Below are positions 1-10,209 of a DNA stretch of 10,585 nt, piece by piece. Location: IMG/VR virus record IMGVR_UViG_2541047825_000014, one strand, 5' to 3'. Within the stretch, counting starts at the first letter, position 1. Each line of letters begins with the position of its first letter. The notes beneath the pieces are model-generated. The model made no database searches. It was not told where the DNA came from and saw only the letters and a program-made list of their open reading frames with translations. The DNA is from a virus. Its lineage: Duplodnaviria > Heunggongvirae > Uroviricota > Caudoviricetes. The translations under genes and the position numbers were made by a program.

Positions 1-648
1 ATGGCAGCGACGCACACACTCCCTCTGGCGTCACCGGGCATGGCACGCATCTGCCTTTACGGGGATTTACAACGATTTGGCCGCCGCATCGACCTTCGTG
101 TGAAAACGGGGGCTGAAGCCATCCGGGCGCTGGCCACGCAGCTTCCGTCGTTTCGCCAGAAACTGAATGAGGGCTGGTATCAGGTGCGCATTGCCGGGCG
201 TGATGCAGGCGAAAATGAATTATCTGCCCGTCTTAATGAGCCGCTGGAAAATGGTGCCGTGATTCACATCGTGCCGCGTATGGCGGGAGCTAAAAGTGGC
301 GGTGTGTTTCAGGTGGTGCTGGGGGCGGCGCTGATTGCGGTGGCATGGTGGAACCCTGTGGGCTGGCTGGGTGCTGCGGCTGTATCGGGCATGTATGCGG
401 CAGGGGCCAGTATGATTCTGGGTGGTGTGGCCCAGATGCTGGCACCGAAAGCCAGGACGCCCACGGCAGCCAGTACAGATAACGGCAAACAGAACACCTA
501 TTTCTCCTCACTGGATAACATGGTTGCTCAGGGCAATGTTCTGCCTGTTCTGTACGGTGAAATGCGTGTGGGGTCGCGGGTGGTTTCTCAGGAGATCAGC
601 ACGGCAGACGAAGGTGACGGTGGTCAGGTTGTGGTGATTGGTCGCTGA
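1..648 (+). CDS. I: Phage tail assembly protein I (lambda gpI family)
   Basis: 215-aa ORF starting MAATHTLPLASPGMARICLYGDLQRFGRRIDLRVKTGAEAIRALATQLP and ending GGQVVVIGR, recognised as the lambda gpI family. It sits immediately upstream of J, as in lambda. The ATG is at the window edge, so upstream context is not visible. Confidence 0.85.
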   Translation: MAATHTLPLASPGMARICLYGDLQRFGRRIDLRVKTGAEAIRALATQLPSFRQKLNEGWYQVRIAGRDAGENELSARLNEPLENGAVIHIVPRMAGAKSGGVFQVVLGAALIAVAWWNPVGWLGAAAVSGMYAAGASMILGGVAQMLAPKARTPTAASTDNGKQNTYFSSLDNMVAQGNVLPVLYGEMRVGSRVVSQEISTADEGDGGQVVVIGR

Positions 649-708: not shown

Positions 709-3700
709 ATGGGTAAAGGCAGCAGTAAGGGGCATACCCCGCGCGAAGCGAAGGACAACCTGAAGTCCACGCAGTTGCTGAGTGTGATCGATGCCATCAG
801 CGAAGGGCCGGTTGAAGGTCCGGTGGATGGGTTAAAAAGCGTGCTGCTGAACAGTACGCCGGTGCTGGACAGTGAGGGGAATACCAATATATCCGGCGTC
901 ACGGTGGTGTTCCGGGCAGGTGAGCAGGAGCAGACTCCGCCGGAGGGGTTTGAATCCTCCGGTTCCGAGACGGTGCTGGGTACGGAAGTGAAATATGACA
1001 CGCCGATCACCCGCACCATCACGTCGGCAAACATCGACCGTCTGCGCTTTACCTTCGGTGTGCAGGCACTGGTGGAAACCACCTCAAAGGGGGACAGGAA
1101 TCCATCGGAAGTCCGCCTGCTGGTTCAGATACAGCGTAACGGTGGCTGGGTGACGGAAAAAGACATCACCATTAAGGGCAAAACCACCTCGCAGTATCTG
1201 GCCTCGGTGGTGGTGGATAACCTGCCGCCGCGCCCGTTTAATATCCGGATGCGCAGGATGACGCCGGACAGCACCACAGACCAGCTGCAGAACAAAACGC
1301 TCTGGTCGTCATACACCGAAATCATCGATGTGAAACAGTGCTACCCGAACACGGCACTGGTTGGCGTGCAGGTGGACTCGGAGCAGTTCGGCAGCCAGCA
1401 GGTGAGCCGTAATTATCATCTTCGCGGGCGCATTCTGCAGGTGCCGTCGAACTATAACCCGCAGACGCGGCAATACAGCGGTATCTGGGACGGAACGTTA
1501 AAACCGGCATACAGCAACAACATGGCCTGGTGTCTGTGGGATATGCTGACCCATCCGCGCTACGGCATGGGGAAACGTCTTGGTGCGGCGGATGTGGATA
1601 AATGGGCGCTGTATGTCATCGGCCAGAATTGCGACCAGTCGGTGCCGGACGGCTTTGGCGGCACGGAGCCGCGCATCACCTGTAACGCTTACCTGACCAC
1701 ACAGCGCAAGGCGTGGGATGTGCTCAGTGATTTCTGCTCGGCGATGCGCTGTATGCCGGTATGGAACGGGCAGACGCTGACGTTCGTGCAGGACCGACCA
1801 TCAGATAAGGTGTGGACCTATAACCGCAGTAATGTGGTGATGCCGGATGATGGCGCGCCGTTCCGCTACAGTTTCAGCGCCCTGAAGGACCGCCATAATG
1901 CCGTTGAGGTGAACTGGACTGACCCGGATAACGGCTGGGAAACGGCAACAGAGCTTGTGGAGGACACGCAGACCATTGCCCGTTACGGTCGTAACGTCAC
2001 GAAGATGGATGCCTTTGGCTGTACCAGCCGGGGGCAGGCACACAGAGCCGGGCTGTGGCTGATTAAAACGGAGCTGCTGGAAACGCAGACCGTGGATTTC
2101 AGCGTGGGCGCAGAAGGGCTTCGCCATGTACCGGGCGATGTCATTGAAATCTGCGATGATGACTATGCGGGTATCAGCACCGGTGGTCGTGTGCTGGCGG
2201 TGAACAGCCAGACCCGGACGCTGACGCTCGACCGTGAAATCACGCTGCCATCCTCCGGTACCACGCTGATAAGCCTGGTTGACGGAAATGGCAATCCGGT
2301 CAGCGTGGAGGTTCAGTCCGTCACCGACGGCGTGAAGGTAAAAGTGAGCCGTGTTCCTGACGGTGTTGCTGAATACAGCGTATGGGGGCTGAAGCTGCCG
2401 ACGCTGCGCCAGCGCCTGTTCCGCTGTGTGAGTATCCGTGAGAACGACGACGGCACGTATGCCATCACTGCCGTGCAGCATGTACCGGAGAAAGAAGCCA
2501 TCGTGGATAACGGGGCGCACTTTGACGGTGACCAGAGCGGCACGGTGAATGGTGTCACGCCGCCAGCGGTGCAGCACCTGACTGCCGAAGTCACCGCAGA
2601 CAGCGGGGAGTATCAGGTACTGGCCCGCTGGGACACGCCGAAGGTGGTGAAGGGCGTGAGCTTCCTGCTTCGCCTGACCGTGGCAGCGGACGACGGCAGT
2701 GAGCGGCTGGTCAGCACAGCCAGGACGACGGAAACCACATACCGCTTCAGGCAACTGGCGCTGGGGCGTTACACGCTGACGGTCCGGGCGGTAAATGCGT
2801 GGGGACAGCAGGGCGATCCGGCATCGGTATCGTTCCGGATTGCCGCACCGGCAGTGCCGTCGAGGATTGAGCTGACGCCGGGCTATTTTCAGATAACTGC
2901 CACGCCGCATCTTGCGGTTTATGATCCGACGGTACAGTTTGATTTCTGGTTCTCGGAAACGCGGATTACCGATATCAGGCAGGTTGAAACCACAGCCCGC
3001 TATCTTGGCACGGCGCTGTACTGGATAGCCGCCAGTATCAATATCAAACCGGGCCATGATTATTATTTTTACATCCGCAGTGTGAACACCGTTGGCAAAT
3101 CGGCATTTGTGGAGGCTGTTGGCCAGCCGAGTGATGATGCATCCGGCTATCTGGATTTTTTCAAAGGAGAGATAGGGAAAAGCCATCTGGCTCAGGAGCT
3201 GTGGACGCAGATTGATAACGGTCAGCTTGCGCCTGACCTGGCTGAAATCAGGACGTCCATTACGGATGTCAGCAATGAAATCACGCAGACCGTCAATAAG
3301 AAACTGGAAGACCAGAGTGCGGCAATTCAGCAGATACAGAAGGTTCAGGTTGATACAAATAATAACCTGAACAGCATGTGGGCTGTGAAGCTGCAGCAGA
3401 TGCAGGACGGACGCCTTTATATCGCGGGTATTGGTGCCGGTATTGAGAACACCCCTGACGGCATGCAGAGTCAGGTGCTGCTGGCGGCGGACAGGATTGC
3501 GATGGTTAATCCTGCGAATGGCAACACAAAGCCGATGTTTGTTGGTCAGGGCGATCAGATATTCATGAACGAAGTGTTCCTGAAATATCTGACGGCTCCC
3601 ACCATTACCAGCGGCGGTAATCCTCCGGCATTTTCCCTGACACCGGACGGGCGGCTGACGGCAAAAAATGCCGATATCAGCGGTAACGTGAATGCGAACT

Positions 3701-4188
3701 CCGGGACGCTCAACAACGTCACGATTAACGAGAATTGCCGGGTTCTGGGAAAACTGTCCGCGAACCAGATTGAAGGCGATCTCGTTAAAACAGTGGGCAA
3801 AGCTTTCCCCCGTGACTCCCGTGCACCGGAACGGTGGCCATCAGGGACCATTACCGTCAGGGTTTATGACGATCAGCCGTTTGACCGGCAAATTGTTATT
3901 CCAGCGGTGGCTTTCAGCGGTGCCAGACATGAACGGGAGAATAGCGATACTTATTCGTCATGCCGCCTGATAGTGAAGAAAAACGGGGCTGAAATTTATA
4001 ACCGAACGGCTCTGGATAATACTCTGATTTACACGGGTGTTATTGATATGCCTGCAGGCAGTGGCGTAATGACACTGGAGTTTTCGGTATCAGCATGGTG
4101 GGTAAATGGCTGGTATCCCACAGCAAGTATCAGCGATTTGCTGGTTGTGGTGATGAAGAAAGCCACCGCAGGCATCAGTATCAGCTGA
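709..4188 (+). CDS. J: Tail tip / host specificity protein J (central tail fiber), with a divergent C-terminal receptor-binding region
   Basis: 1159-aa ORF starting [34 protein letters not shown], recognised as lambda gpJ over most of its length. GGAG at 697-700 precedes the ATG at 709. The last ~330 aa (from about nt 3180) are AT-richer and do not look like the lambda LamB-binding C-terminus as I recall it. Confidence 0.95.
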
Positions 4189-4255: not shown

Positions 4256-4855
4256 ATGCGTAAATTATGTGCTGTTATTCTGTCCGCAGTAGTCTGGCTG
4301 GTTGCCGCTGGTACGCCAGCGAGCGCAGCAGAGCATCAGTCCACACTAAGCGCCGGGTATCTTCAGACCCATACTGATATGCCAGGCAGTGATGACCTGA
4401 AGGGCATTAACGTGAAATACCGTTATGAATTTACGGACACGCTGGGGCTGGTGACGTCATTCAGTTATGCCAATGCCAAAGATGAGCAAAAAACGCATTA
4501 CAGCGATACCCGCTGGCATGAAGATTCAGTGCGTAACCGCTGGTTCAGCGTGATGGCGGGGCCGTCTGTACGCGTGAATGAATGGTTCAGTGCTTATGCG
4601 ATGGCGGGTGTGGCTTACAGCCGTGTTTCGACGTTCTCCGGGGATTATCTCCGCGTAACTGACAACAAGGGGAAAACGCACGATGTGCTGACCGGAAGTG
4701 ATGACGGTCGCCACAGCGACACGTCTCTGGCATGGGGGGCTGGCGTGCAGTTTAACCCGACCGAATCCGTGGCCATTGATATTGCTTATGAAGGTTCCGG
4801 CAGTGGCGACTGGCGCACTGACGGTTTCATCGTTGGTGTCGGTTATAAATTCTGA
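4256..4855 (+). CDS. lom: Lom outer membrane protein (Ail/Lom/OmpX/PagC beta-barrel family); lysogenic-conversion moron
   Basis: 199-aa ORF with a signal peptide (MRKLCAVILSAVVWLVAAGTPASA) and a C-terminal GFIVGVGYKF beta-barrel terminus, recognised as lambda Lom. Ribosome-binding site GAGAGG at 4243-4248. Flanked by terminators on both sides. Confidence 0.95.
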   Translation: MRKLCAVILSAVVWLVAAGTPASAAEHQSTLSAGYLQTHTDMPGSDDLKGINVKYRYEFTDTLGLVTSFSYANAKDEQKTHYSDTRWHEDSVRNRWFSVMAGPSVRVNEWFSAYAMAGVAYSRVSTFSGDYLRVTDNKGKTHDVLTGSDDGRHSDTSLAWGAGVQFNPTESVAIDIAYEGSGSGDWRTDGFIVGVGYKF

Positions 4856-4909: not shown

Positions 4910-4919
4910 TGGAGTGGAT

Positions 4920-6983
4920 ATGGCAGCAGTAAAAATCTCAGGTGTGCTGAAAGATGGTGCGGGAAAACCAATACAGAACTGCACTATTCAACTGAAGGCA
5001 AAGCGTAACAGCACCACGGTACTGGTCAACACAGTGGCCTCTGAAAATCCGGATGAAGCCGGGCGTTACAGCATGGATGTTGAGTATGGACAGTACAGCG
5101 TCACCCTGCTGGTTGAAGGTTTTCCGCCTTCACATGCCGGGACCATTACCGTCTATGAAGGTTCCAGACCAGGTACGCTGAATGATTTTCTCGGTGCCAT
5201 GACGGAAGATGATGTCATGCCGGAGGCATTGCGTCGTTTTGAGGAAATGGTGGAAGAAGCGGCACGCAACGCTGAAGCCGCCTCTCAGAGCGCAGCGGCA
5301 GCAAAGAAATCAGAAACAGCAGCGGCATCGTCCAGGAATGCGGCGAAAACATCAGAGACGAATGCAGGTAACAGCGCGAAAGCGGCAGCTTCTTCAAAAA
5401 CAGCCGCACAAAACGCAGCAACAGCGGCAGAACGTTCAGAGACAAATGCCCGTGCGTCAGAAGAAGCCTCCGCAGACAGTGAAGAGGCTTCCCGCCGTAA
5501 TGCAGAGTCAGCCGCTGAAAATGCCGGAGTCGCCACCACAAAAGCGCGGGAGGCCGCAGCAGACGCAACAAAGGCCGGGCAGAAAAAGGATGAGGCTCTG
5601 TCGGCAGCGACACGGGCTGAAAAGGCGGCAGACCGCGCAGAAGTCGCAGCGGAAGTGACTGCAGAGCCCTATGCGAATATAGTGCCGCCGCTGCCTGATG
5701 TGTGGATACCGTTTAACGATTCACTGGATATGATTGCGGGTTTTTCTCCGGGCTATAAAAAAATAGCTATTGGTGACGATGTGGTTCAGGTCGCCAGTGA
5801 TAAACAGGTTAATTTCAGTCGCGCATCAACGGCAACATATATCAACAAATCTGGCGAACTGAAAACGGCGGAAATTAATGAGCCGCGATTTGAGTGTGAT
5901 GGCCTGCTTATTGAGGGACAAAGAACGAACTACATGCTCAATTCGGAAAGTCCAGCCAGCTGGGGGAAGTCATCAAACATGGATGTGCCCGAAACCGGGA
6001 CGGATAGTTTTGGTTTTACTTATGGAAAGTTTGTCTGCAACGATTCTCTGGTTGGGCAAACTTCGGCTATTAATATGGCATCAATTGCTGCAACAAAGTC
6101 AGTTGATGTCTCAGGCGATAACAAGTACGTGACAACCTCATGCCGTTTTAAAACAGAACGACAGGTAAGGTTACGTATACGGTTTGATAAGTATGATGGT
6201 AGTGCAACAACTTTTCTTGGCGATGCGTACATTGATACGCAAACGCTTGAAATTAATATGACAGGTGGTGCTGCCGGCAGAATTACGGCACGAGTCAGGA
6301 AGGATAAGACCACAGGCTGGATTTTTGCAGAGGCAACGATTCAGGCAATTGATGGTGAGTTAAAAATAGGCTCTCAGATACAGTATTCTCCTGAGCAGGG
6401 TGGGGCAACAGTATCTGGTGACTATATTTATCTTGCCACCCCACAAGTAGAGAATGGGCCGTGTGTATCATCATTTATTATTTCAGGAGGCAGCGCAACG
6501 ACAAGAGCCAGTGATTTGGTTAGTATCCCCACCAGAAATAATCTTTATAAGTTACCATTTACTTTTTTACTTGAGATTCATAAAAACTGGGATATTGCAC
6601 CAAACGCCGCACCCCGCGTGTGGGATATAGCAGCAGCCAATACCGGGCAATCAGCAATTGCAGCAATCAACAGAGGTAGTGGTAAGTTATATATGAGTCT
6701 GTCAAACCCTTCAGGCTCGTATGTTAATAGCGCAGCGACAGATGTATTTGCAGAGAAAACCACATTTGGATGTATTGCAAAAGCTGATGGTCACTTTCAT
6801 GTGGTGACAAATGGTAAAGCGGTTAATGAAGTTTATTGTGAATATAATGGCGTGACCGCTGATAAAAATATCCGATTTGGAGGGCAGACGAATACTGGAG
6901 AACGACATCTGTTTGGCCATATTCGCAATTTCCGCATATGGCATAAAGAATTAAATGACAGGCAATTAAAAGAGGTCGTATGA
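4920..6983 (+). CDS. stf: Side tail fiber protein (Stf-like), mosaic: conserved N-terminal tail-attachment region, Ala-rich repetitive shaft, divergent AT-rich C-terminal putative receptor-binding domain
   Basis: ORF track gives 4914-6983 with a GTG start. I prefer the ATG at 4920 (product MAAVKISGVLKDG..., matching the lambda Stf N-terminus) with GGAG at 4911-4914. No tfa-like gene follows. Confidence 0.85.
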   Translation: MAAVKISGVLKDGAGKPIQNCTIQLKAKRNSTTVLVNTVASENPDEAGRYSMDVEYGQYSVTLLVEGFPPSHAGTITVYEGSRPGTLNDFLGAMTEDDVMPEALRRFEEMVEEAARNAEAASQSAAAAKKSETAAASSRNAAKTSETNAGNSAKAAASSKTAAQNAATAAERSETNARASEEASADSEEASRRNAESAAENAGVATTKAREAAADATKAGQKKDEALSAATRAEKAADRAEVAAEVTAEPYANIVPPLPDVWIPFNDSLDMIAGFSPGYKKIAIGDDVVQVASDKQVNFSRASTATYINKSGELKTAEINEPRFECDGLLIEGQRTNYMLNSESPASWGKSSNMDVPETGTDSFGFTYGKFVCNDSLVGQTSAINMASIAATKSVDVSGDNKYVTTSCRFKTERQVRLRIRFDKYDGSATTFLGDAYIDTQTLEINMTGGAAGRITARVRKDKTTGWIFAEATIQAIDGELKIGSQIQYSPEQGGATVSGDYIYLATPQVENGPCVSSFIISGGSATTRASDLVSIPTRNNLYKLPFTFLLEIHKNWDIAPNAAPRVWDIAAANTGQSAIAAINRGSGKLYMSLSNPSGSYVNSAATDVFAEKTTFGCIAKADGHFHVVTNGKAVNEVYCEYNGVTADKNIRFGGQTNTGERHLFGHIRNFRIWHKELNDRQLKEVV
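5260..5650 (+). repeat. Low-complexity Ala/Ser/Glu-rich degenerate repeats encoding the fiber shaft of Stf
   Basis: Translation contains repeated A-A-K/S-x-S-E-T-N/A-A motifs (AAKKSETAAASSRNAAKTSETNAGNSAKAAASSKTAAQNAATAAERSETNARASEEAS...). The GC-rich GCN-codon runs generate spurious overlapping ORFs on both strands. Confidence 0.6.
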
Positions 6984-7258
6984 AAGATTTAACTTTGAAG
7001 TTTCATGACAAACTGCAGTTTAAGGCCTTCCTGTCATCTCTTGGCTGGGCGGAAGATGAAGACCTCCAGAATAAACTGTTAGTTGATGAAATTGGTTTCA
7101 CCTACACAGAAACAGGGGTAACAGAAGAGGGAGAACCTGTCTGTATCCGGAATGATGGTTATTTTGTCAACATTCGCATTCTTGATGACTTGTTTGATGT
7201 TTCTGTATTCTCTGATTATGTCGTGGAGCTGGAAACACCGCTTCGGGAATGGAGCTGA
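6980..7258 (+). CDS. Hypothetical acidic 92-aa protein, translationally coupled to stf
   Basis: The ATG at 6980 overlaps the stf stop (ATGA at 6980-6983). AGAGG at 6971-6975. No signal peptide or TM segment. No family recognised. Confidence 0.55.
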   Translation: MKDLTLKFHDKLQFKAFLSSLGWAEDEDLQNKLLVDEIGFTYTETGVTEEGEPVCIRNDGYFVNIRILDDLFDVSVFSDYVVELETPLREWS

Positions 7259-7270
7259 AAGGAGGAAATA

Positions 7271-7558
7271 ATGGATATAAGCCCCTTACTTCATGCACTT
7301 TGTGCTGTGGCTGCGCAGATACTGGTTGGTCTTTTTACCGGAAACTGGGCTTACGGAGCGATAGCCGGTTGTACGTTCTTCATTGCGCGTGAACATACCC
7401 AGGCAGAATATCGCTGGATTGAAATGTTCGGGCATGGCAAGCGAATGAATATGCCGTGGTGGGGCGGTTTTGATCCGCGTGCTTGGGATGTGGCAAGCCT
7501 GATGGATTTTGCTGTGCCGGTGGTGGCGTGTCTGCTGATCTGGATGTTGATCCGTTAA
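7271..7558 (+). CDS. Hypothetical small membrane protein (95 aa, two predicted TM helices)
   Basis: Strong ribosome-binding site GGAGGA at 7261-7266, 5 nt before the ATG. Hydrophobic N-terminal segment (LLHALCAVAAQILVGLFTG...AIAGCTFFIA) and C-terminal segment (FAVPVVACLLIWMLI), with a Trp-rich loop (NMPWWGGFDPRAWD). No family recognised. Confidence 0.6.
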   Translation: MDISPLLHALCAVAAQILVGLFTGNWAYGAIAGCTFFIAREHTQAEYRWIEMFGHGKRMNMPWWGGFDPRAWDVASLMDFAVPVVACLLIWMLIR

Positions 7559-7675: not shown

Positions 7676-7924
7676 TTAGTGAACAAACCACTCATCAGCA
7701 GACTCCCAGGTATCTTTCAGAGTTTCCTGAACAAAAGTTTTAGCTGAATCTTTATCGGCGGTGCGCGTAACAGAAAGGCCATCGTTGCTGGTGGCTTTTA
7801 CGATCACCTCTACATCGTCATAACGTTTACTGATGCGTCGGGTTAATTCTTCCTTTAACGCATCCACAGCACCGTTTGGCATTTTAGTCATTTTTTCTTT
7901 GGCTATGCAGATCTCAATACGCAT
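7676..7924 (-). CDS. DinI-family DNA-damage-inducible protein (prophage-encoded DinI-like)
   Basis: 82-aa [38 protein letters not shown]...[11 protein letters not shown] with the characteristic DinI N-terminus and acidic C-terminal TWESAD(D/E)WF motif. GAGGGA ribosome-binding site upstream. Confidence 0.9.
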
Positions 7925-7937
7925 AAAAGTCCCTCTA

Positions 7938-7989
7938 TACTGTGTTTGTATACAGTGTTATTTTTAACTGTATGGATAAACAGTGTCAA
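7938..7989 (-). promoter_or_regulatory. SOS-regulated sigma70 promoter of the dinI-like gene with two tandem LexA boxes
   Basis: Two CTGT-N8-ACAG motifs: box 1 TACTGTGTTTGTATACAGTG (7938-7957) and box 2 AACTGTATGGATAAACAGTG (7966-7985). On the minus strand a perfect -35 TTGACA (complement of 7984-7989) abuts box 2, and a -10-like TAAAAA lies 17 nt downstream (complement of 7961-7966). The -35 overlaps the integrase stop codon. Confidence 0.7.
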
Positions 7990-9083
7990 GAGGTCTTATT
8001 TCTGCTCCTTTGGAGCTCTTCAAAACGATTATGTAAAGATTTCGGATACAGTTCGGTATATACCTGCCATAGCACGTTTAATGAACGATGCCCTGTAACC
8101 TGAGCGACTTCCTCAATACTAAAACCAGCCTCAAATAAGCGACTTGCCCCTTCTCTACGCAAATCATGGTATCGCAGATCTTTAATACCTAATTTGCTTC
8201 TTACCCTCTGAAATCCTGCAGTAACAGAAGTGCTGTTATATGGAAAAATGAATTCCGATTTTTTGGGCTGTCGTTGGACGATATCCCAGGCTTCCCCAAG
8301 CAAGGCTACTTTCATGTGGTTGCCTTCCTTTTTGCGTGGATCTTTCCTGTCTCTTACGAGTATAGATTTTTGTTCCTGGTCGAGATCTTCCCATCGTAAC
8401 CGGCATACTTCTCCGATCCGCATACAGGACCACACAGAAAATTTGAGGATATCAACGAACGGAATTTTTGAGCATTTATGAGTAGATCGTTGTTGAAGGC
8501 CTTCAATGAGCATGTCCAGTTCATCAGATGCTGGTCTACGATTACGACGGTTTGATTTACCAATCAAACCAAGTTTAAGTAGATATGGGCGAGCGCTTTT
8601 CGCCGGGTTTGATGTGTAATTAATTCCGTATACAGGTTTGGCCGCATCCAGAACACTGCCAAGATAACTAACATCGTGGCTGACTGTTGCTGGACCTGCA
8701 CCAGCGTTGTTTCTTAGCCTGCAATGTTCAATTACGTCATTTTCTGTCAGTTCAGATAGTTTGATCGCGGAGATGTCACTATCCATAAGCAGTTCCAGCA
8801 CATATCTTTTAGTACGGCCTGCTTTACCTCCGGCATTTGGGTCATTTAAATATTTGTGTAGTAAGTCACGGACTGTAAGTCCGTCAACTGCATTTGATGA
8901 TGGAATGCCATATAGATCTAATTCCATCACTTTCTGTGTTCCCCATGTTTTGGCATGAGCATGTTTAGGGAATGTTTTGCTTTCCCTGTAAGTGATAACA
9001 CCTTTTTCTTTGATAATCACATTACAGCGATAGCGTGGTGTGCCATCGGATTTTAGTCGTTTCTCTATGTTATAGTACGCCAT
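7986..9083 (-). CDS. int: Phage integrase, tyrosine site-specific recombinase family
   Basis: 365-aa ORF. The C-terminal catalytic region carries R...HxxR...Y hallmarks (RYHDLRREGASRLFEAG...VTGHRSLNVLWQVYTEL). It diverges from dusA with an 88-bp intergenic spacer. Confidence 0.93.
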   Translation of the reverse strand: MAYYNIEKRLKSDGTPRYRCNVIIKEKGVITYRESKTFPKHAHAKTWGTQKVMELDLYGIPSSNAVDGLTVRDLLHKYLNDPNAGGKAGRTKRYVLELLMDSDISAIKLSELTENDVIEHCRLRNNAGAGPATVSHDVSYLGSVLDAAKPVYGINYTSNPAKSARPYLLKLGLIGKSNRRNRRPASDELDMLIEGLQQRSTHKCSKIPFVDILKFSVWSCMRIGEVCRLRWEDLDQEQKSILVRDRKDPRKKEGNHMKVALLGEAWDIVQRQPKKSEFIFPYNSTSVTAGFQRVRSKLGIKDLRYHDLRREGASRLFEAGFSIEEVAQVTGHRSLNVLWQVYTELYPKSLHNRFEELQRSRNKTS

Positions 9084-9101
9084 TACACGACCTCGTTATT
9101 T

Positions 9102-9139
9102 CGGGTTCCCATAAAACGTGGGAACCTGTGCGGGAACCT
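9102..9139. repeat. Three copies of a GGGAACC/GGGTTCCC heptamer (one inverted, two direct) in the int-dusA intergenic region; candidate integrase or regulator binding sites or att-associated repeats
   Basis: cGGGTTCCCataaaacgtGGGAACCtgtgcGGGAACCtaacg read directly from the sequence. Confidence 0.4.
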
Positions 9140-9171
9140 AACGCGAGAAAAATAGCCTGAAATGTTCAAAA

Positions 9172-10209
9172 ATGCACGATAATCATGAAACACAAAAAAT
9201 TAATCAAACCAGCGTGATGCCTGAAAAAACTGGTGTTTACTGGAATTCTCGGTTTAGCATTGCTCCTATGCTTGACTGGACGGACAGACATTGCCGTTAT
9301 TTCTTGCGTCTGCTTTCCCGCAATACGTTGTTGTATACCGAAATGGTGACCACAGGGGCGATTATTCACGGTAAAGGTGATTACCTGGCGTACAGTGAAG
9401 AAGAACATCCGGTAGCGTTGCAACTCGGGGGTAGCGATCCGGCGGCGCTGGCACAGTGTGCGAAGCTGGCAGAAGCGCGTGGATATGATGAGATCAACCT
9501 GAATGTCGGCTGCCCGTCTGACCGGGTGCAGAACGGCATGTTTGGTGCGTGTCTGATGGGTAATGCGCAGCTGGTTGCCGACTGCGTGAAAGCGATGCGC
9601 GATGTGGTGTCGATTCCGGTGACGGTGAAAACGCGTATTGGCATCGATGATCAGGACAGCTATGAATTTCTCTGCGATTTCATCAACACCGTTTCCGGCA
9701 AAGGTGAGTGTGAGATGTTCATCATCCACGCACGTAAAGCCTGGCTTTCTGGGTTAAGTCCGAAAGAAAACCGTGAGATCCCGCCTCTCGATTATCCGCG
9801 TGTGTATCAACTGAAGCGTGACTTTCCGCATCTGACGATGTCGATTAACGGTGGTATCAAGTCGCTGGAAGAAGCTAAAGCGCATTTGCAACATATGGAT
9901 GGCGTGATGGTCGGGCGCGAGGCGTATCAGAATCCGGGTATTCTGGCGGCGGTAGACCGAGAGATTTTTGGTTCCTCGGATACCGATGCCGATCCGGTGG
10001 CGGTAGTGCGCGCCATGTATCCGTACATTGAGCGTGAACTCAGCCAGGGTACGTATCTCGGCCATATTACCCGGCATATGCTGGGCTTGTTCCAGGGTAT
10101 TCCTGGCGCGCGGCAGTGGCGGCGTTATTTAAGTGAAAATGCCCATAAAGCGGGTGCAGACATTAATGTGCTGGAACACGCGCTCAAACTGGTGGCGGAT
10201 AAGCGTTAA
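9172..10209 (+). CDS. dusA: tRNA-dihydrouridine synthase A (DusA)
   Basis: 345-aa ORF with a Dus-family TIM-barrel signature ([17 protein letters not shown]...NLNVGCPS...). The exact start is uncertain: the ATG at 9172 has no clear ribosome-binding site, and an in-frame alternative lies at 9217. The first ~150 nt are notably AT-rich compared with the rest of the gene. Confidence 0.9.

Follow-up and report, generated by a model that had tools for sequence, protein, structure and literature searches.

A lambda-type side tail fibre with a lectin-type head and an overlapping partner gene in a lambdoid prophage

The window analysed here, the complete 10,585-nucleotide stretch of IMG/VR record IMGVR_UViG_2541047825_000014, contains a side tail fibre gene, stf, that joins a lambda-type collar and shaft to a different kind of distal end. 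This end, the head, consists of a conserved neck and two lobes with homology to concanavalin A (ConA)- and laminin G (LamG)-type domains, and its predicted fold is all-beta. No gene for a Tfa-type chaperone follows. Instead, stf overlaps the start of a small gene, orf92, whose homologues are strictly linked to this head across phages. We consider it probable, if well short of certain, that stf encodes a primary-receptor fibre that binds glycans, that its heads can do without a Tfa-type chaperone, and that a conserved accessory protein, either an assembly factor or an adaptor, serves it.

The lambda-type fibre and its lectin-type head

The stf open reading frame (ORF) is intact and encodes 689 residues when counted from the GTG at 4914; the ATG at 4920, chosen by the annotation pipeline PGAP for the same gene, is the probable true start. 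Residues 5–134 match the collar family PF08400 (E = 5.8e-67; 224 bits against a cut-off of 26.6 bits), and the N-terminus is 73% identical to lambda orf-401. The shaft, residues 95–255, is 33.5% alanine and 14.3% glutamate, resembles the shaft repeats of orf-401 and is presumed, by analogy, to be a trimeric coiled coil. A sequence-only reading of this DNA had described a Stf-like N-terminus and an Ala-rich shaft, and both descriptions hold. The order J, lom, stf places the gene at the end of the tail operon, as for lambda-type Stf. Residues 1–94 of Ur-lambda Stf form a 12-copy collar that bears four trimeric fibres (PMC12617516). By analogy with this electron cryo-microscopy structure, the present fibre would be a homotrimer with four copies per virion (PMC12617516).

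From about residue 256 the character of the sequence shifts. The sequence-only reading had stated that the last ~440 residues lack the Gly/His-rich repeats of gp37, and composition bears this out: histidine makes up 1.4%, there is one HxH motif, and BLASTP finds no similarity to lambda orf-314. Stf also has no match to Peptidase_S74 (PF13884). The start that the same reading gave for this region, 5650, misses the frame by one base: the first base of codon 246 is 5649, and translation of 5650–6980 meets 17 stops. We subdivided the head into a neck and two lobes, D1 and D2 (Table 1). Across 129 distinct pairs of fibre and orf92 proteins, the neck is the most conserved segment, with a majority-residue frequency of 0.73. 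Four of the nine invariant columns of the head family, and most of the near-invariant ones, also lie in the neck. GC content falls from ~0.57 in J and the stf shaft to 0.40–0.44 over the head and orf92 (~5680–7250). The drop begins at the neck and marks the cassette as different in origin from the remainder of the tail operon.

Residues 332–532 match the NCBIfam family NF048003 ('phage head spike fiber domain') at 55.7 bits against a cut-off of 36, and PGAP names the same gene after this family. The sole significant sequence relative in the PDB is Rcc01080 (GhsB, PDB 6TB9), the NF048003-type head-spike fibre of RcGTA, the gene transfer agent of Rhodobacter capsulatus (phmmer E = 6.5e-10; query 55–301 against chain 44–285), which is homologous over D1 and part of the neck. 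Rcc01080 is a two-lobed, lectin-like beta protein that binds capsular polysaccharide (PMC10218006), and a fluorescent fusion of it bound encapsulated R. capsulatus cells far better than cells without a capsule (PMC10218006). It is a stand-alone protein of 325 residues, present as a single subunit on each RcGTA capsid spike and anchored to the pentameric spike base by an (I/L)-G repeat (PMC7296036). Unlike Rcc01080, the head described here is the distal end of a tail fibre, with an extra, conserved neck start (residues 256–300) and a distinct LamG lobe at its C-terminus. The (I/L)-G anchor repeat is absent ahead of the head domain. Since a collar and a shaft precede the domain, the protein is not a head spike, and the PGAP name is misleading for a tail fibre.

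The second lobe has a different relationship. Residues 563–684 match Laminin_G_3 (PF13385) at 24.8–25.6 bits against the Pfam cut-off of 27.6, and 29 of 52 diverse family members match the same profile at E ≤ 0.001 (best E = 1.9e-11). The terminal motif that had been likened to ConA/LamG lectin domains from the letters alone falls within this sub-cut-off match. Structure prediction had been named in advance as the test of that likeness. The AlphaFold2 model of residues 246–689, a monomer built from an alignment of 51 relatives, is confidently all-beta (pLDDT 93.1, pTM 0.90) and has the jelly-roll beta-sandwich of the concanavalin A-like superfamily. Its top fold matches are non-catalytic binding domains, and no gp37-like needle is among the fold matches listed. 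The best of these matches span 185–196 residues, which exceeds the length of D2; they therefore appear to describe D1, with D2 being the LamG lobe detected by Pfam. Together, the profile matches and the model support a tip built of ConA/LamG-type jelly rolls, which is non-canonical in comparison with lambda and T4 gp37. On this structural point the sequence-only reading was largely correct.

The fibre shares with the lambda Stf/Tfa and T4 gp37/gp38 systems a collar, an Ala-rich shaft, a position after J and lom and a presumed accessory role in speeding adsorption (PMC12617516). In lambda, the tip is a needle of the gp37 kind, rich in Gly and His, whose target is the protein OmpC, and Tfa (PF02413) is encoded next. 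The present head has no sequence in common with that tip and adopts a lectin fold, and the gene behind it bears no relation to Tfa. An atlas of tail-fibre structures defines a 'lectin-like head' pseudo-domain, D69, a C-terminal beta-sandwich carried on coiled-coil fibres and interchangeable with Peptidase_S74 ends (10.1101/2024.10.28.620165). Going by the published description only, D69 (e.g., RBP_10 of Escherichia phage EmilHeitz) is a possible counterpart of the head of this fibre.

In E. coli TUM13754 (locus L181, 4007–6070), where stf is 99.4% identical, PGAP annotates the gene as two features, an N-terminal pseudogene and a separate 'phage head spike fiber domain-containing protein', and also calls a tiny 'capsid protein' pseudogene fragment directly after orf95. 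In the isolated phage Lambda_4C10 (L002, 4784–7200), and also in 4A7, D2, 1W and 3W, an insertion sequence (IS) element with three 'mobile element protein' ORFs lies within stf at about residue 646. This insertion near the 3' end parts a shortened fibre gene from orf92 and orf95.

The small gene orf92 and its linkage to the head

None of the ORFs between stf and int, including orf92, orf95 and a 70-residue antisense ORF, matches Caudo_TAP/Tfa (PF02413). Pfam, NCBIfam and PHROG scans of all of them for a hidden tfa were likewise negative, and alignment of the orf92 family profile with lambda Tfa gave an hhalign probability of 0.1%. The sequence-only reading was thus right that no tfa gene follows stf. 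It also implied that no assembly-type gene is present, and there it had overlooked orf92, whose ATG overlaps the TGA of stf (ATGA) in the position that tfa occupies in lambda. orf92 matches phrog_1361 at E = 3.2e-42, and all 13 diverse members tested match PHROG 1361 and 18574, both of them without an assigned function. All its relatives carry the annotation 'hypothetical' except the one in the T5-like phage IrisVonRoten, which bears the generic name 'tail fiber protein'. A fold search with orf92 returned no known fold or solved relative, and no homology or fold match indicative of a chaperone was obtained.

Two further settings bear on Tfa. In a P2-like prophage the cassette has taken the place of the fibre tip and is followed by a 74-residue Caudo_TAP remnant that covers the last third of the profile only; here the incoming cassette displaced tfa. 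This arrangement fits Tfa-independent folding of the head. The isolated phages phage 21 and mEp460_4F5 carry the same locus as the window, which we count toward Tfa being dispensable.

The presence of orf92 after the head is not fortuitous. The head is fused to three unrelated anchors, of the lambda Stf type, of the P2 gpH type (PF12571) and of a third prophage type, and on each of them a 92-residue orf92 homologue follows with overlapping start and stop. The homologue lies 0–3 nucleotides from the stop of the head gene in lambda-like, P2-like, T1-like, T5-like, Leclercia-type and Aeromonas phages, and it also follows the head in Dhillonvirus phages; every phage type examined has it. The pair also occurs in KarlJaspers, IrisVonRoten, fp01 and an Aeromonas myophage. 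In a distant branch with lobes ~20–30% identical, drawn from prophages of Leclercia, Enterobacter and E. coli, the homologue stands at the same 0–3 nucleotide spacing in 76 of 80 loci. The locus search with the family alignment covered relatives at least 70% identical, and the distant set was obtained with query P0199; of the other distant queries, P0208 was matched by its N-terminus only and P0297 yielded one truncated contig. orf92 is intact at 167 of the 169 informative loci. Thirteen loci had no orf92 match, of which 11 were uninformative (contig ends, shortened fibre genes or another C-terminus) and two hold decayed copies (Table 1). At one of the latter, L036, a 627-residue ORF lies on the minus strand somewhat downstream. 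No orf92 homologue was detected beside the single Rhodobacter phage relative checked.

Within the cassette, orf92 follows the conserved parts of the head. Over the 129 pairs, and uncorrected for shared ancestry, its identity correlates with that of the neck (r = 0.84) and the terminal motif (r = 0.76) and less with that of D1 (0.48) and D2 (0.51); the correlation with D2 is weak despite D2 being the adjacent DNA. Where a locus has an orf92 with 50% or more identity to this copy, its neck is 74–100% identical to the present one, falling to 68–71% in the third prophage type. D1 and D2 each exist as several alleles that recombine independently, giving combinations such as 92% identity in D1 with 42% in D2, or 32% with 40%. 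In Lambda_2E9, both lobes are replaced and orf92 is still 90% identical. The direction of these correlations fits the view that orf92 works with the base of the head, which is conserved, and that specificity is set by the surfaces of D1 and D2.

The cassette is widespread, and the suggestion that this arrangement is unusual was not supported by comparison. The segment 5650–7549 (~7550) of the window, which takes in the distal part of stf, orf92 and most of orf95, matches the corresponding loci of phage 21, mEp460_4F5, Perceval and ev017 at 99.2–99.7% DNA identity (99.2% for phage 21). In 450 of 5,426 complete E. coli genomes, a place covers at least 80% of a stf–orf92–orf95 query. A tblastn search detected the head in 228 phage records, among them the T1-like phages tunus, tonn and JK16, the T5-like phages IrisVonRoten, BUCT632 and EC122, the Dhillonvirus 'rolling', the ~137-kb Escherichia phages pangalan and Gotham and, more distantly, Rhodobacter and Synechococcus phages. 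Foldseek searches of BFVD are consistent with this distribution. A HMMER search of the full library found 2,864 cluster representatives at E ≤ 0.001, and in almost every one of the 150 listed the module is C-terminal. The lectin-type head is among the commoner distal modules of coliphages and E. coli prophages. It behaves as a self-contained cassette of a neck, two independently swappable lobes and a 92-residue partner gene, found without Tfa on lambda-, P2-, T1- and T5-type anchors. The fibre itself is ordinary, a widespread representative of a known type, and the orf92 partner family is the only modestly new element.

Phage 21 (OL657228) is the closest known system and has the same order of stf, an overlapping 92-residue ORF and a membrane-protein ORF (CPT_21_22 'side tail fiber', _23 and _24), the small genes being annotated only as a hypothetical protein and a putative membrane protein. 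In phage 21, the cassette is followed by sitABCD and there is no lom, whereas this prophage has dinI and int and is integrated at dusA. Literature searches on the phage 21 side tail fibre, Laminin_G_3 tail fibres and mEp460 yielded nothing on function, and the Eligo paper on lambda Stf engineering makes no use of this head.

In some relatives, orf92 is followed directly by a Peptidase_S74 fibre gene. This order occurs in the third prophage type, in Leclercia-type loci, in KarlJaspers and in IrisVonRoten. The S74 fibres of a T1-like phage, a T5-like phage and a prophage (Table 1) share the N-terminal motif TVxxIPxDIxxLK (MATVTNIPADITALK, MVTKTVIPTDITKLK, MASVTVIPTDINNLK), which may be a docking peptide for the lectin-headed fibre or for orf92. 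In the third E. coli prophage type (L008–L010, L014–L015), the fibre gene, orf92 and the S74 gene lie between a capsid-protease/major-capsid fusion gene and the tail tube gene, an unusual location for fibre genes. IrisVonRoten (Bas32) has a head 52% identical to this one (tblastn, H96) at the end of Gp22, on a T5 Ltf-type anchor, and the 92-residue orf92 homologue Gp23 directly after it. The next protein is Gp24, a T-shaped fibre with an intramolecular chaperone (IMC); the window has no such second fibre gene. The BASEL authors described a protruding 'galectin-like domain' at the Gp22 C-terminus as a possible additional receptor-binding domain (PMC11990801). DT57C LtfA/LtfB, considered as a model for branching, was rejected: the C-terminus of LtfA is an S74 domain and not this head.

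Proposed function and competing explanations

We propose that a horizontally mobile lectin-head cassette has replaced the distal end of a side tail fibre of the lambda type. By analogy with Ur-lambda, the collar would mount the fibre on the tail just above the tip, as four trimers or twelve chains. The Ala-rich coiled-coil shaft would extend outwards, each chain ending in a neck and two ConA/LamG beta-sandwich lobes. Homology and fold suggest that these heads bind glycan. With up to twelve of them per virion, binding to surface polysaccharide (O-antigen, capsule or another exposed glycan) would be multivalent and reversible. The virion would be concentrated at the cell surface, and the central fibre J would then engage its outer-membrane receptor. 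A Tfa chaperone is needed for the interdigitated tip of the gp37/Stf type. The present heads probably fold independently as globular domains, because the RcGTA homologue occurs as one subunit per spike and the monomer model of the head is itself confident; independent folding would explain the absence of Tfa. The orf92 protein, its gene translationally coupled to stf, would most probably act where shaft and head meet, either by assisting assembly or as a small structural piece, an adaptor or cap. The recombination pattern, with at least three anchor types and independent shuffling of D1 and D2, is typical of receptor-binding modules.

Several points weigh against this reading. Capsule binding in the NF048003 family has been demonstrated only for the Rhodobacter protein Rcc01080 (PMC10218006). 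The LamG score of this Stf sequence falls below the Pfam threshold, and the head structure is a monomer prediction; in a trimer the three heads may either splay or pack together. The correlations of orf92 with the neck include whatever is due to shared ancestry. At the two loci with decayed orf92 the fibre gene is intact, so orf92 may not be strictly essential. Side fibres are laboratory-dispensable, and the IS elements within stf of several isolated phages indicate that this fibre is dispensable for laboratory propagation. Finally, the homologous fibre of IrisVonRoten has been modelled as a proximal fibre that carries the T-shaped second fibre (PMC11990801), implying that the head may be partly a docking platform.

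Taken further, the last point becomes an alternative in which the head serves mainly as a docking platform and orf92 is the adaptor from which a second, distal fibre of the Peptidase_S74/IMC type hangs. The fibre would then be branched, and its form in the window, having lost the second gene, partly vestigial. The S74 gene found directly after orf92 in four settings is as this account would have it, as are the motif shared by the second fibres of three unrelated phages, the BASEL model in which Gp24 attaches to the head-bearing Gp22 of IrisVonRoten (PMC11990801), and the tracking by orf92 of the conserved parts of the head and not its variable lobes. It has more difficulty with the lambda-like and P2-like loci, which have no second fibre gene: there orf92 is followed by the membrane-protein gene and then by dinI and int, or by P2 tail genes. 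Among ~450 E. coli genomes with the cassette, no second fibre gene lay under the match in the 15 hits listed. D1 and D2 are hypervariable and shuffled, as expected of a receptor contact and not of a docking surface, and the RcGTA homologue binds capsule alone. We regard docking as the main role of the head as unlikely. An enzymatic head with a ConA-like scaffold of the GH16 or polysaccharide-lyase kind, which as a depolymerase or esterase would break down O-antigen or capsule in the manner of tailspikes, would account for the weak, low-ranked GH16 and lyase fold matches. The top matches are the non-catalytic domains noted above, neither Pfam nor NCBIfam detects a glycosidase or lyase family in the head, and the invariant residues lie in framework motifs held in common with the non-enzymatic RcGTA fibre and not in a recognisable GH16 catalytic motif. 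We give a catalytic head very little credence.

A third possibility concerns orf92 alone, which might be unrelated to the fibre and merely hitch-hike beside a frequently exchanged cassette, for example as an anti-defence or exclusion factor. Its lack of chaperone-type homology or fold, its decay at two loci with intact fibre genes, and its neighbour orf95, which resembles such a passenger, would suit this. A passenger would hardly be expected to remain linked down to ~30% identity, across temperate and virulent siphoviruses and myoviruses of Escherichia, Salmonella, Leclercia and Aeromonas, with stop and start always overlapping or abutting. Nor does simple linkage predict that orf92 divergence follows the distant neck more closely than the adjacent D2, or that Lambda_2E9 keeps a 90%-identical orf92 beside two replaced lobes. 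We judge a hitch-hiking origin to be quite improbable.

For orf92 as a partner of the glycan-binding fibre, a more specific role can be suggested, in which we place not quite even confidence. The family (PHROG 1361/18574) may be an unrecognised class of tail-fibre accessory protein dedicated to lectin-headed fibres, in which it would take over the function of Tfa, of gp38 or of an intramolecular chaperone. Its site of action would be the conserved neck, where it would join three independently folding heads to the trimeric shaft or serve as the socket of a second fibre, and it would be required whenever the head is transplanted to another phage. Side and lateral fibres govern the first step of host recognition and are swapped when phages or phage-derived delivery particles are retargeted. 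Engineers of chimeric fibres who use this head should probably include orf92.

Gene order, insertion site and downstream genes

The window spans the right end of a lambdoid prophage together with the junction to the chromosome (Table 1). A near-identical layout is annotated in E. coli TUM13754 and in other E. coli isolates from humans and animals. The prophage adjoins dusA, with the tyrosine integrase gene beside dusA and divergently oriented (7986–10209), and the dusA ORF of 345 residues is still intact. Elements that target dusA replace its 5' end, so an intact ORF is expected. For the biology of the window, this is an ordinary phage-21-type fibre in a prophage of the extraintestinal pathogenic E. 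coli (ExPEC) type at dusA.

Table 1. Features of the window and, in the last five rows, of related loci (positions within the locus named)
Feature	Position	Strand	Remarks
Gene-I-like tail assembly ORF	1–648		Provisional label
J	709–4188		
lom	4256–4855		
stf, side tail fibre gene	4914–6983	+	ORF list; PGAP start in a 99.4% identical genome; match to phage 21 locus
N-terminal tail-attachment (collar) domain	4926–5315	+	Residues 5–134; PF08400
Ala/Glu/Ser-rich shaft	5196–5678	+	Residues 95–255
Neck	5679–5948	+	Residues 256–345; PLPDVWIPFNDSL...NEPRFE..GLLIEG..TN
Head lobe D1	5949–6548	+	Residues 346–545; variable ConA-like jelly roll, GTA head-spike-fibre type
Head lobe D2	6549–6980	+	Residues 546–689; LamG-type jelly roll, C-terminal end HLFGHIRNFRIWHKELNDRQLKEVV
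orf92, partner of lectin-type head	6980–7258	+	92 aa; small acidic alpha/beta protein
orf95, small predicted membrane protein	7271–7558	+	95 aa; PHROG 1443, profile without assigned function
dinI	7676–7924	-	
int, tyrosine integrase	7986–9083	-	
dusA	9172–10209		Followed by start of next host gene
Decayed orf92	L036 4332–4623		Fragmented ORFs
Decayed orf92	L140 4683–4784		33-aa remnant with internal deletion
S74 fibre with shared motif	L182 4270–4947		T1-like
S74 fibre with shared motif	L183 4789–6513		T5-like
S74 fibre with shared motif	L015 4290–5474		Prophage

The gene after orf92, orf95, belongs to PHROG 1443, and the phage 21 annotation of its counterpart reads 'putative membrane protein, 2 TMDs'. 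Lambda-like and P2-like prophages have orf95 behind orf92, whereas the third prophage type and the T1-like and T5-like phages that were examined do not. Most occurrences of orf95 in the phage collection are in temperate Escherichia phages. The protein probably does not belong to the fibre; its gene accompanies the cassette only in temperate phages and could serve lysogenic conversion or exclusion from its place beside a receptor-binding module. Directly after orf95, both phage 21 (L001, 6007–9456) and a P2-like prophage with the same cassette (L005, 7998–11447) carry sitABCD, an iron/manganese transporter operon. The fibre cassette and sitABCD seem to have moved together between lambdoid and P2-like phage.

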